Source: Escherichia coli (GTDB taxonomy: Bacteria; Pseudomonadota; Gammaproteobacteria; Enterobacterales; Enterobacteriaceae). Taken from it: a DNA stretch of 64,000 nucleotides. This document shows positions 17,861-20,800 of the stretch, in pieces. Where the stretch lies: assembly GCF_045037415.1 (NCBI RefSeq), contig NZ_CP173438.1; one strand, 5' to 3'. Position numbers: made by a program. Numbering within the stretch: position 1 is the stretch's first letter; the number at the start of each line of letters is the position of its first letter.

Positions 17861-20800
17861 TAAGTGATGCACACGGAAGATGAGATGTGGAAAGGATTAC
17901 AGAGACATTAAGTATCGCTTGTGCAGATGAGATACCGGATATCGCCTTACTTCGGCAAACATCGAGAGAGAAGGTATTACATCTGCATTTTGCCAGCGAA
18001 GCAGAGAGGTATCGTGAGGAATTCGGGCTGGTGCTGAAAGCACAGCTCGATGAATTTGTTGTTGGCATGCATTCTGCCGACCCGGTTATCAGGATCGCCA
18101 GATTAATATCGCTTGAAGAGATTAACCGCCATCAGGATTTTTTCGAACACTGCGCGAAAGAATATCGTAAGCTGGCGACAGAGCTTATATTTGCATTGGC
18201 TGAACAACTGAACGTTGAGATGGCGGAAAATAACCCGCTAGTTACCTTTGCCCCCTTCAAATGCAACCGTAAGCGAAAAGGCAAAATGGGAAAGTGGCAG
18301 TATTGTTTTCACGGTTTTCATTGTACATTTGAGAATAAAAAAACAGAGCAAAATATTGAAGTTCCCCTCGCCTACGGCTTTGATTTCGGCGATCTGGACC
18401 CGTATTTTTTTTCCGGATTTATCAAATCGACCCCCGCCTGGCAGCCTCTGCCAGTGGCTATTTACGATGATTACCACGACGGTAGCAGGATCATTCAACA
18501 ACTGCTGGCGCTGGGAAAGTTACAAAAAATCCCTTCACCGATCCCACAATACACGGGGGTTGCTGCGGTAGATCGGTCCAATGTCGACATCGCAAATTTT
18601 CGCTCAACACTGGAGAGTCGCCTGCACCGATGTAAATTACGCTGGCTTTTGAAGCATGTAAAAAATTCACAAAGGAGCGAAAGATGAAATTTGACCATCT
18701 TGTTGATGTTAGCTTCCACAATTTTGTCTTTAACGGAAAATTCGATTTTGTCGAACTGGGGCAAACAATGGCATGGTTGGAACAAAACTTTGTTGAGCCG
18801 GACTCTAAAAATGATATGGGAAATGGTTTTTATATCTGGCTATTTGGTAATGTTGAGTTTCATTTCGAAAACAACAAGCTATATATGATTTGGTGCGATT
18901 ATCTGAGCCAAATCCATTTGGGCAAAGCGATCCGATTTGATAAAGGAATATTGAATAACGTCGCTGAGTTGAACGTTACGCGTGTATTTAACATGCTTGT
19001 TAACGAAGGCGCTGATCTGCAAATCCGCCGTCAATCGCCCCATACACTCTTAATCCACGTCAATCGCTCAGGCGTGACACTTTGGTTTGAAGCAGATGAA
19101 GAACAGCCTGGTGATCCGCAGAATTATATGCTGATGGCATTTGGTTTGACACATCGCGATTACGATGCAAGATTTCAATATTCATAAATGGCGGCGTCAT
19201 ATCATGACGCCGCGACGGGGTTCATTACTGCCAGCTCACCTCACCTTTCGGTTCATAAACACTCACATCCAGCGGCGAGCTTTTCTGGATATACGCTTTC
19301 AGCACTTCGGCATCAATAAAGCCGGTATTCACATAGCCCGGTTTGTTATCAAGGCGCGGATAGCCATCACCGCCGGTGGCATTGAAGTTTAATGTCGCCA
19401 TACGGTAAGTTTTCGCCGGATCGACCGGTTCGCCTTTGATTTTCAGGTCGTTCAGTTTGCCGTCTTTCGCCACAAAGCTAACGTTGGCAAATTGCGGGTA
19501 GGCACCTGAATCTGGCTTCATTTGTGCGACGGCTGTCAGGTAATCAATCACCTCTTTACCGGTCATGTCGGCATACACCACCACATTGCCGAATGGCTGC
19601 ACTTTCAGCACGTTTTTATAGCTGATATCACCTGCTTCGATAGAATCACGAATTCCGCCTCCGCTCATCACCGCAAAGTCGGCACCAGTGCGATCCATTT
19701 GTGCTGCCAGAATCAACCGCCCCATATTGGTCTGTACAAAACGCACTTTGTCACGATCGCCTTCCAGACGACCATTGGTTTCGCCTATTTTCACTTCCAG
19801 CTGCGCTTTGCCTTTGTTCTGGAACGGTGATAACAGCGAGATCATTTGCTGGTTTTCAGCGATTTCAGGGGTGTACAGCACGCGCTCGCTTTTCCCGTCT
19901 TCCCAGGTCACTTTCTTCTTCAGGTTCACCGGAATCAGCTGGTAGTTAACCATTTTCATTTCGCCATTACGAAACTCAAAATCAGCCCGTCCCACGTATT
20001 TGCCCCACTCATGCGCCTGCACAATCCAGATGCCGTTTTGTTGATCCGGTTTGCATGGCGTACCCGGCACGTAATCGACCTGTTTTTTGTTTTCTGCCGC
20101 CATACAGACCGGATCTTGCGAGTGACCACCGACGATCATCGCCAGCGATCCGGCAGGCAGCGCGCGTGCCATCTCCACATCGCCCGGTGCGTTAGAGCCG
20201 TGCTCACCATTGTCGTAATGCCCCATATGGGTCGCCGCGATAATAATGTCTGGCTTTTCTGTCTGTTGCAGCTCCTGAATCACCAGCTTCGCTTCATCAG
20301 CGGGCTTACGAAATTCGATATCAGTGAAATATTCCGGATTACCAATTTTGGCTGTGTCATCCGTCGTCAGGCCAATAACGGCAATTTTCAGATCCTGACG
20401 CTTAAACAGCGCCCATGGTTTAAACAGGCGCTCGCCGGTACTTTTCTGGTAGATATTGGCGGAAAGCAACGGGAACTTAGCCCACTTTTCCTGCTGGCGT
20501 AATACGGTGAGCGGGTTATCAAATTCATGATTACCGATCGCCATCGCGTCATAGCCCACCAGATTCATACCGCGAAAATCAGGTTCGGCATCCTGTAAGT
20601 CGGACTCGGGCACGCCAGTGTTAATGTCGCCACCGGAAAGTAGCAGCACGCTACCGCCTTCAGCCGCAACCTCTTTGCGGATACCATCCACCAGCGTTTT
20701 TTGCGCCGCCAGACCATATTCACCATATTCATTGCGCCAAAAATGCCCATGATGATCATTGGTGTGCAGAACTGTAATTTTGTAGGTTTTATCCTGCTCG

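Follow-up and report, generated by a model that had tools for sequence, protein, structure and literature searches.

What does the first gene of the small insertion behind ybaK encode, and is it one half of a two-gene system? The window, that is, the whole stretch of 64,000 nt of Escherichia coli DNA that was analysed (contig NZ_CP173438.1), carries two overlapping genes, here ORF A and ORF B, between ybaK and the convergent ushA. An initial annotation had proposed that ORF A might be the effector or toxin of such a pair, with its position upstream of a tightly coupled small acidic protein as the reason. Our preferred reading is that ORF A is a real gene of the DUF6896 family within a ybaK-ushA insertion, likely cotranscribed with ybaK, and that its product would be a stand-alone binding protein and not a toxin; we put the probability of this reading at roughly 55%. 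The features of the locus are as follows.

17384..17863, + strand: ybaK, Cys-tRNA(Pro)/Cys-tRNA(Cys) deacylase; the upstream gene and probable source of the transcript
17864..19220, + strand: two-gene, low-GC insertion of 1.36 kb, which replaces the 36-bp ybaK-ushA spacer of K-12; borders from alignments with K-12
17864..17886, + strand: spacer between ybaK and ORF A; its in-frame stop TGA (17881-17883) is preceded by a purine-rich GGAAG (17875-17879) that resembles a Shine-Dalgarno sequence
17887-18687, + strand: ORF A, GTG-initiated, 266 aa, DUF6896 family; the same as RefSeq WP_000439798.1
18684..19187, + strand: ORF B, 167 aa, acidic, pI 5.1; a separate family without a Pfam entry
19190..19213, no strand assigned: 10-bp GC-rich hairpin between the stop of ORF B and the convergent stop of ushA; -18.5 kcal/mol on the + strand and -18.6 kcal/mol on the - strand (z -3.2 and -3.6)

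The ORF A gene and its place behind ybaK

ORF A is a real gene, already on record for E. coli, and its product is soluble and cytoplasmic. RefSeq annotates an identical CDS at 17887-18687 as "DUF6896 domain-containing protein", and the Pfam model PF21837 (DUF6896) matched residues 87-215 over model positions 2-119 of 128 (E 9.8e-14, 52 bits). Shuffling the cassette 500 times never gave an open frame as long as the 267 codons seen here (mean 95, maximum 228). The GTG at 17887, which had been proposed as the start, was upheld. An in-frame TGA lies one codon ahead of it, the next in-frame ATG is only at M61, and the GTG is supported because the full-length homologues (38-59% identity) start at the same codon, their N-termini lining up with that of ORF A at MER.TE. 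Within Escherichia, lineages whose copies are 88% and 92% identical have kept both the GTG and the stop one codon upstream. The GGAAG is located 7 nt 5' of the GTG, in agreement with the purine-rich ribosome-binding site noted earlier. Database variants of ORF A with multiple frameshifts (P0013, P0025, P0040 and P0009) were considered as evidence of pseudogenisation and rejected, because the frameshifts, some of them at homopolymer runs, look like assembly errors.

The stop codon of ybaK (17861-17863) is separated from the GTG by 23 nt, and this spacer contained neither a stable hairpin (-4.3 kcal/mol, z -0.6) nor a promoter-like site. In K-12, a hairpin of -19 kcal/mol stands directly 3' of ybaK; in the window, the hairpin at 19190..19213 is its probable replacement as a bidirectional terminator. 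Since the terminator hairpin lies behind ORF B here and not behind ybaK as in K-12, a ybaK-ORF A-ORF B transcript is likely, and ORF A would most likely be transcribed from the ybaK promoter, with the message ending at the hairpin behind ORF B. The suggestion that ORF A expression may depend on transcription from ybaK thus appears plausible, given the spacer, the displaced hairpin and the recurrence of the gene order. As to the last, ybaK also directly precedes the DUF6896 gene at loci L026 and L027-L029, so that the two genes follow each other on the same strand in three diverged enterobacterial lineages, with gaps of 12-30 nt in the other two. In these lineages the ybaK genes are 87-92% identical and the DUF6896 genes only 46-59%. 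The recurrent ybaK-DUF6896 adjacency is the new element here. ORF A in itself is a known, catalogued hypothetical gene and no surprise, a plain member that does not really differ from the entries PF21837 and WP_000439798.1, and our literature search for DUF6896 and for ybaK with ushA returned nothing relevant.

The insertion was found in 774 of 5426 complete E. coli genomes (~14%), with extraintestinal lineages of clinical importance, S88 for one, among the carriers, and the empty site was found in 4647. The idea that the ybaK-ushA interval is a hotspot with other cargo in E. coli was discarded, as these two states, 774 plus 4647, account for the 5422 genomes compared. Within Escherichia, ORF A and ORF B were always inherited together. 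The flanks have a GC content of 50-58%, but ORF A only 45.9% and ORF B 39.9%, and dN/dS within Escherichia was 0.32-0.65 for ORF A, 0.13-0.24 for ORF B and 0.02-0.06 for the flanks. ORF A thus evolves fast, as genes involved in conflicts do more typically than a binding protein with a housekeeping role, and this counts against our preferred reading. In the Escherichia lineages dS of the cassette was lower than that of the flanks, which implies exchange between lineages. The window also contains a HigB/HigA type II pair 1.6 kb upstream.

The DUF6896 protein and its conserved site

The AlphaFold2 model of ORF A was confident (pLDDT 89.8). A fold search with it gave whole-chain matches only to other DUF6896 proteins, whose fold ORF A shares; a match to an unrelated well-known fold was not among them, and a profile search against PDB sequences gave chance-level matches only (E > 1). 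The parts of the protein are:

17887..18102, + strand: N-terminal acidic domain, residues 1-72, predicted beta-alpha-beta-alpha-beta-beta with an IF3-C / YhbY-CRM / SepF-like fold
18145..18531, + strand: DUF6896 core (PF21837), residues 87-215; two helices, a four-stranded beta-meander and then helices, according to the HMM and the model
18295..18411, + strand: family signature and candidate functional site, W137-x-Y-x-F-H142-G-x-[H/E]145-C146-x-F-x-N ... Q155-x-I-E158 ... F-G-x-L-D171-P-Y-F-F
18583..18684, + strand: basic amphipathic C-terminal tail, residues 233-266, pI 11.4

ORF A had been described as an acidic, helical N-terminal half, a central Cys/His cluster on a basic patch and an aromatic-rich C-terminal region, and this outline needed correction in several parts. 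Residues 1-120 are indeed acidic (pI 4.98; 22 D/E against 13 K/R), but the half is not purely helical in the model, where the mixed domain of residues 1-72 is followed by a long helix. The likeness of this domain to the C-terminal domain of IF3, to YhbY (CRM) and to SepF is one of fold class only, with 4-15% identity, and it is acidic whereas those domains are basic. The aromatic stretch GFDFGDLDPYFFSGF is present at residues 164-178, but these belong to the central part of the DUF6896 core, and the true C-terminus is the basic tail. The lack of a transmembrane segment was confirmed (Kyte-Doolittle means over 19 residues reached 1.05 at most), and the N-terminal end is acidic. Of the 24 close homologues, 19 had a tail with a net charge of +3 to +9, and in 18 the best 11-residue segment of the tail ranked among the top 5% within the same protein by hydrophobic moment. 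ORF A belongs to a long subfamily of about 260 aa, which is set apart by an additional N-terminal domain, by C89 and H145 as a pair and by this tail; the tail and the basic loop of residues 121-136 are absent from the distant DUF6896 subfamily.

The signature residues were invariant in the 24 close homologues, and ORF A has the signature in full (W137, H142, G143, C146, Q155, E158, G168, L170, D171, F174 and F175). PF21837 matched 68 of 69 diverse relatives. Across these 69 members, conservation was 100% for W137, 99% for G143, 97% for both H142 and D171, 93% for Q155 and 87% for C146, so that W137, H142, G143, Q155 and D171 are the only residues at or above 90% family-wide. In the model, the site would be formed by a beta-hairpin together with the following strand and loop.

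The Cys/His cluster of the initial annotation was retained in part. The basic patch FAPFKCNRKRKGKMGKWQYCFHGFHC includes C126, C140, H142, H145 and C146, and residues 121-150 are strongly basic (pI 9.8; 7 K/R against 1 D/E). H142, H145 and C146 sit in the conserved F-H142-G-x-H145-C146 motif and, with C89, which had been overlooked, are invariant in the close subfamily, but C126 and C140 varied even among the 24 close homologues. Family-wide, C89 is replaced by Ala in 68% of members and H145 by Glu in 57%. The strongest covariation of position 145 was with position 160 (E/R versus H/P), a pattern that would fit a structural strand-strand pair (Glu/Arg-like) rather than a ligand; the covariation between C89 and H145 was moderate (rank 138 of 34191). 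The proposal of a small zinc-binding or nucleic-acid-binding element keeps its basic patch and its invariant H142, H145 and C146 in the close subfamily, but ORF A matched no zinc-binding domain family in Pfam or PDB sequences and no zinc-finger, HTH or nucleic-acid-binding family in Pfam. A winged-helix-like helix/hairpin is predicted within the protein; it is part of the DUF6896 core, not an independent DNA-binding domain, and unlike true winged-helix domains (ESCRT-II Vps36, YceH, Fur/MarR/ArsR-type) it has no sequence-family match to them.

ORF B and the distribution of the two families

Homologues of ORF A formed 61 clusters, and the full-length ones came from other Enterobacterales and from Bacteroidota. 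DUF6896 as a whole was found in Enterobacterales, Bacteroidota, Myxococcota and Planctomycetota, and on plasmids of Fulvitalea and Flammeovirga; this patchy distribution across phyla suggests horizontal transfer. The plasmid copies were only distant ones, with uninformative neighbourhoods, and no viral relative was found in IMG/VR. Three planctomycete-type proteins (411-510 aa) combine DUF6896 with a C-terminal extension that had no match in Pfam, NCBIfam or PDB. In the gene-context sample of about 27 loci, a small share of the 412 representatives at 50% identity, the Pfam-annotated neighbours differed lineage by lineage, and ORF clustering over 22 loci returned DUF6896 itself as the sole common protein family. 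A Bacteroidales locus of the sample (L022) consists of a run of small same-strand genes. In many genomes the DUF6896 gene stands alone and intact, for example in Leminorella and in an Enterobacteriaceae MAG.

ORF B answers to the description of a small acidic protein tightly coupled downstream. The two genes overlap in ATGA, and a GGAG at 18674 lies 6 nt upstream of the ORF B ATG, an arrangement from which translational coupling to ORF A is predicted. The structure prediction for ORF B had low confidence (pLDDT 35), and the protein matched no family in Pfam, NCBIfam, PADLOC or PHROGs. Its own family comprises at least 239 clusters. In 80 metagenome loci of this family there was no DUF6896 gene, and ORF clustering across them gave no conserved neighbour family. 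Likewise, ORF B did not stand beside DUF6896 at any of the non-Escherichia loci examined, and in one sample a 65%-identical homologue and the DUF6896 gene lay on separate contigs. Both families occur in some genera, among them Aquimarina, Flammeovirga and Fulvitalea. A common origin of the two was considered and rejected (profile-profile comparison, probability 0.2%). Most likely, ORF B would be a passenger that is independent of ORF A, its family being another unannotated one.

Possible functions of ORF A

Our results bear first on the toxin proposal, in which ORF A would supply the toxic or effector half of a two-gene module, whether toxin-antitoxin or defence, and ORF B the antidote. Type II modules do resemble the cassette in having two small overlapping genes in one operon and an acidic second product, and the tight ATGA coupling and the constant co-inheritance within Escherichia speak for such a pair. 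However, among the loci examined the pairing is restricted to Escherichia, each gene has homologues that stand alone elsewhere, and the two families are unrelated to each other. In E. coli WL297 ORF A is intact although ORF B is frameshifted by a 29-bp deletion, so persistence does not require a functional antitoxin. For ORF A, DUF6896 was the sole Pfam match, NCBIfam and PHROGs gave no match, and the PADLOC defence models had no match at E up to 1 for either protein; a conserved adjacent antitoxin, toxin or defence homology and an HTH antitoxin, which a type II module would lead one to expect, were all absent. The toxin-antitoxin reading is thus already largely contradicted, and we regard it as very improbable. 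A more serious competitor, possible if still unlikely, is that ORF A, and ORF B perhaps as well, belongs to the orphan immunity type, which would bind and so neutralise an interbacterial toxin and be kept as a small acquired protective island. Like orphan immunity genes and acquired defence islands, ORF A is small, cytoplasmic, patchily distributed, low in GC, fast-evolving and inserted between conserved genes; it has no enzyme homology. Its spread over phyla and plasmids suggestive of transfer, the genera that hold both families, the raised dN/dS, the low dS that implies exchange within Escherichia, and the run of small genes at the Bacteroidales locus would all suit this idea. But no toxin, Rhs, CdiA, LXG, PAAR or T6SS gene neighboured DUF6896 in the Pfam-annotated loci of the sample of about 27, no neighbour family was common to the loci, and no Pfam Imm family, SUKH included, matched ORF A. 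A polar motif so strongly conserved across phyla would also be unusual for an immunity protein.

The recurrent position behind ybaK raises the question of whether ORF A works in connection with YbaK, as an enzyme or accessory factor in aminoacyl-tRNA or thiol-related quality control, with an active site of the His142/Cys146/Asp171 type. The same-strand order in three diverged lineages, the nearly invariant His, Cys, Gln, Glu and Asp in a compact motif, and an N-terminal domain of the often RNA-associated IF3-C/YhbY (CRM) fold class would favour it. However, Leminorella, Bacteroidota, Planctomycetota and Myxococcota do not share the adjacency, which may thus go back to a single ancestral site of insertion, 86% of E. 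coli genomes keep ybaK without ORF A, the N-terminal domain is acidic unlike the RNA-binding IF3-C/YhbY domains, and the protein resembles no enzyme fold; the tie to YbaK seems quite unlikely. We are similarly doubtful of a zinc-binding, nucleic-acid-binding regulator built of a Cys/His knuckle, the basic loop, the winged-helix-like module and the basic tail. The invariance of C89, H142, H145 and C146 in the close subfamily and the two basic segments point that way, but C126 and C140 are not conserved, most of the family has Ala for C89 and Glu for H145, the distant subfamily does without loop and tail, and HTH and zinc-finger matches were lacking in Pfam. An outside chance, finally, is that DUF6896 is a new-fold protein whose conserved pocket has a previously undescribed activity and which is co-expressed with YbaK in Enterobacteriaceae. 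If true, the protein could be a thiol- or metal-dependent enzyme, or else serve as an adaptor for quality control, be it of aminoacyl-tRNA or related to cysteine, and the ybaK-DUF6896 operon would reflect function beyond a shared insertion site.

On the stand-alone binding reading, ORF A may act alone, and its conserved His/Cys/Gln/Glu/Asp surface might hold a ligand. Candidates are a metal ion, to which C89 could contribute in this subfamily, a small molecule, and another protein as partner. This tentative mechanism is argued from residue conservation.

The cassette is a clean presence/absence polymorphism in E. coli, and it brings together two families without an assigned function, that of ORF B even without a Pfam entry. 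The ruling against a toxin-antitoxin module prevents a wrong annotation of the pair. The repeated occurrence of DUF6896 genes directly after ybaK, together with their compact conserved His/Cys/Glu/Asp motif, provides cheap and concrete handles on a first function for the family.

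The ybaK-ushA insertion and the gene for ORF A

Genes in the window were arranged in the order copA, higB-like/ybaQ, ybaP, ChiX, ybaK, ORF A, ORF B, ushA, fsr and ybaL. In K-12, the convergent ybaK and ushA are separated by a 36-bp spacer that folds as a 10-bp hairpin (-19 kcal/mol). Alignment to K-12 revealed that this spacer was replaced by an insertion (the cassette) bordered by the base after the ybaK stop and by the ushA stop:

17864-19220, insertion of about 1.36 kb, holding ORF A and ORF B
17887-18687 (+), ORF A; GTG start 23 nt past the ybaK stop, in-frame TGA one codon before
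18684-19187 (+), ORF B; 167 aa, pI 5.1, ATGA overlap with ORF A, good GGAG
19029-19038 and 19058-19067, 10-bp repeat CGTCAATCGC, both copies inside ORF B

GC content was 45.9% in ORF A and 39.9% in ORF B, with the flanks at 50-58%, and non-Escherichia copies of DUF6896 (Pfam PF21837, the family of ORF A) were also 10 points under their own ybaK.

Elsewhere in the locus, a complete gene for a HigB-like RelE/ParE toxin (100 aa, 15951-16253, -) lay beside ybaQ/HigA (113 aa, 15574-15915, -). This pair (15574-16253, -) was placed between copA and ybaP; the Escherichia lineage of loci L032-L035 lacks it, with ybaP directly after copA. The sRNA ChiX (Rfam sroB, 82 bits) was found at 17179-17262 (-) between ybaP and ybaK, with a terminator-like hairpin at 17206-17187. 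In E. coli AR_0104 (NZ_CP020116.1), an IS1 transposase gene was annotated inside the matched region and ybaK was listed twice, suggesting that IS1 splits ybaK just upstream of the cassette.

ORF A is a real gene and its GTG start is correct, as the initial annotation had proposed: RefSeq holds an identical CDS (WP_000439798.1, 'DUF6896 domain-containing protein'), and nearly all homologues start at the same alignment position, with M-[EK]-R-x-T-E. Two further lineages of Escherichia, at 88% and 92% identity, kept GTG GAA AGG ATT and the stop one codon upstream, and in non-Escherichia enterobacterial homologues the corresponding codon is ATG. A GGAAG precedes the GTG by 7 nt, the open frame of 267 codons compares with a maximum of 228 among 500 shuffles, and residues 1-60 were modelled at pLDDT 93-96. 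A search of 5.8 billion proteins returned 61 clusters; the full-length homologues among them (~260 aa, 38-59% identity) included proteins of Leminorella, an Enterobacteriaceae MAG, Flavobacterium, Chryseobacterium, Chitinophaga, Aquimarina and Mucilaginibacter. The first description was also borne out for the charge pattern and for the KCNRKRKGKMGKWQYCFHGFHC patch and GFDFGDLDPYFFSGF stretch, and the protein has, as stated there, neither TM segment nor signal peptide. Long homopolymer runs occur within ORF A (A7 at 18337-18343, T8 at 18405-18412). Several E. coli entries for the protein in the database are truncated and frameshifted, one at the T8 run and some with multiple compensating shifts; these are likely assembly errors, slippage being a possible alternative.

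Predicted structure and the DUF6896 motif

AlphaFold2 modelled ORF A from a 24-sequence alignment at pLDDT 89.8 and pTM 0.83, as a predicted multi-domain protein without characterised structural relatives and with a compact conserved polar motif:

residues 1-72, beta-alpha-beta-alpha-beta-beta domain
helices 83-107 and 117-125, then a four-stranded meander 131-160 bearing the motif
helices 174-181 and 195-208, hairpin 212-227
long basic C-terminal helix

Only 412 members of the family were recovered by profile search from 1.84 billion representatives. Residues invariant in 24 close homologues include C89, W137, H142, G143, H145, C146, Q155, E158, G168, L170, D171, F174 and F175. Among 69 diverse members, W137 was again invariant and H142 (97%), G143 (99%), C146 (87%), Q155 (93%), E/D158 (94%) and D171 (97%) were largely kept, while position 145 was Glu in 57% and position 89 Ala in 68%. 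The top MI-APC pair (149 sequences) was 145-160, which is H/P in the ORF A subfamily and E/R in the second one. The pair C89-H145 ranked 138 of 34191. The family signature reads, from the alignments, W-x-Y-x-F-H-G-x-[H/E]-C-x-F-x-N...Q-x-I-E...FG-x-LDPYFF, and conservation and covariation together indicated that the Cys/His patch noticed earlier is the edge of this real signature. H142, H145 and C146 thus fall in the conserved motif, but C126 and C140, also counted in the patch, vary among the close homologues and are irrelevant. A CCHH zinc site would be subfamily-specific at best.

In three planctomycete-type metagenome proteins (P0140, P0159 and P0169; locus L010, 7001-8533), DUF6896 is fused at its C-terminal side to an extension that measures about 170-260 aa and in the two longest ends ...LADALEEAGC...HVRGCWVLD.ILGK. 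The extension had zero matches in Pfam, NCBIfam and PDB.

ORF B and the question of pairing

ORF B seemed an orphan in the first search (7 clusters only). However, tblastn matched a Fulvitalea plasmid (30% identity, pairwise E 7e-19), and the profile seeded with this match gathered 239 or more clusters, with proteins of ~160-175 aa, from Bacteroidota, Listeria, Paenibacillus, Nostoc and Hyphomonas. Pfam recognised no domain in any of them. Alignment A8 showed a very strongly conserved motif, GKFDxIKLGQTKEWILNNFPDPD...IWxYGNIEFHF..D.LFLIFSDY. At 80 metagenome loci of this family there was neither a DUF6896 neighbour nor any conserved neighbour, the adjoining genes being unrelated housekeeping ones (e.g. 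recQ, rho, hom, nth) and also LRR proteins. One sample contained both a DUF6896 gene and a 65%-identical ORF B homologue, on different contigs. The two families are unrelated (hhalign probability 0.2%).

The DUF6896 side gave the same picture. Leminorella has a solo gene flanked by ubiB and yaeQ, neighbours differed from locus to locus in Flavobacterium, Chryseobacterium, Chitinophaga and planctomycete or myxobacterial loci, and clustering of all ORFs at 22 loci left DUF6896 as the only common family. In E. coli WL297, a 29-bp deletion between the two CGTCAATCGC copies frameshifted ORF B and left ORF A intact. PADLOC, NCBIfam and PHROGs gave no match, and no relatives were found on viral contigs. 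The unpaired homologues, WL297 and these null searches contradict a toxin/antitoxin or defence reading, and with it the suggestion that ORF A is the effector or toxin half of a pair; ORF A is outside any conserved two-gene module.

Distribution, expression and likely role

Of 5426 complete E. coli genomes, 774 carried the cassette, each in a single copy on the chromosome, and in 769 of these the identity was 99% or higher. A further 4647 had the K-12-type empty junction; the site therefore has two states in E. coli. S88 was among the carriers; it and the ST131-type strains of the hit list belong to phylogroup B2. In E. fergusonii the ORF A protein was 98% identical. The dN/dS of ORF A was unusually high (0.32-0.65): against the 92%-identity Escherichia lineage it was 0.65, compared with 0.14 for ORF B and 0.02-0.05 for ybaP, ybaK and ushA. 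In the comparison with L032, a second Escherichia lineage, dS was 0.07-0.11 in the cassette and 0.25-0.59 in ybaP, ybaK and ushA; this several-fold lower value suggests that the cassette was exchanged among Escherichia lineages by recombination after their split.

Two other enterobacterial lineages carry a DUF6896 gene immediately after ybaK, on the same strand and without ORF B:

L026: ybaK 92% identical, DUF6896 56-59%, gap 30 nt
L027-L029 (Enterobacteriaceae MAG): ybaK 87% identical, DUF6896 46-51%, gap 12 nt

In L027-L029, pseudouridine synthase, DUF2058, cold-shock-domain and ApbA-family genes follow before ushA, so the interval is variable across Enterobacteriaceae and two-state only within E. 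coli. In the window, the spacer between ybaK and ORF A showed neither a promoter-like site nor stable folding (-4.3 kcal/mol, z -0.6), and a hairpin of -18.5 kcal/mol directly 3' of ORF B is placed to serve convergent ushA too. From these features we infer a ybaK-A-B transcript, which would make the proposed dependence of ORF A on ybaK read-through reasonable.

ORF A is thus a genuine, already catalogued DUF6896 member inserted behind ybaK. It would be co-transcribed with ybaK and act alone, its conserved His/Cys/Gln/Glu/Asp surface probably binding a ligand or partner. An orphan immunity-like protector would agree with the low GC, the fast evolution and the patchiness of the distribution; at the loci compared, however, it has no toxin neighbour. 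The ybaK-DUF6896 synteny keeps an enzyme or adaptor linked to YbaK among the rivals, yet that synteny is limited to Enterobacteriaceae. A zinc- or nucleic-acid-binding regulator is a further rival, its basic and Cys/His features being confined to the subfamily; a toxin is the least likely. The initial mechanistic guess was largely wrong. ORF A is an already annotated hypothetical gene that offers two modest leads for experiment, namely its conserved motif and the conserved placing of DUF6896 behind ybaK.
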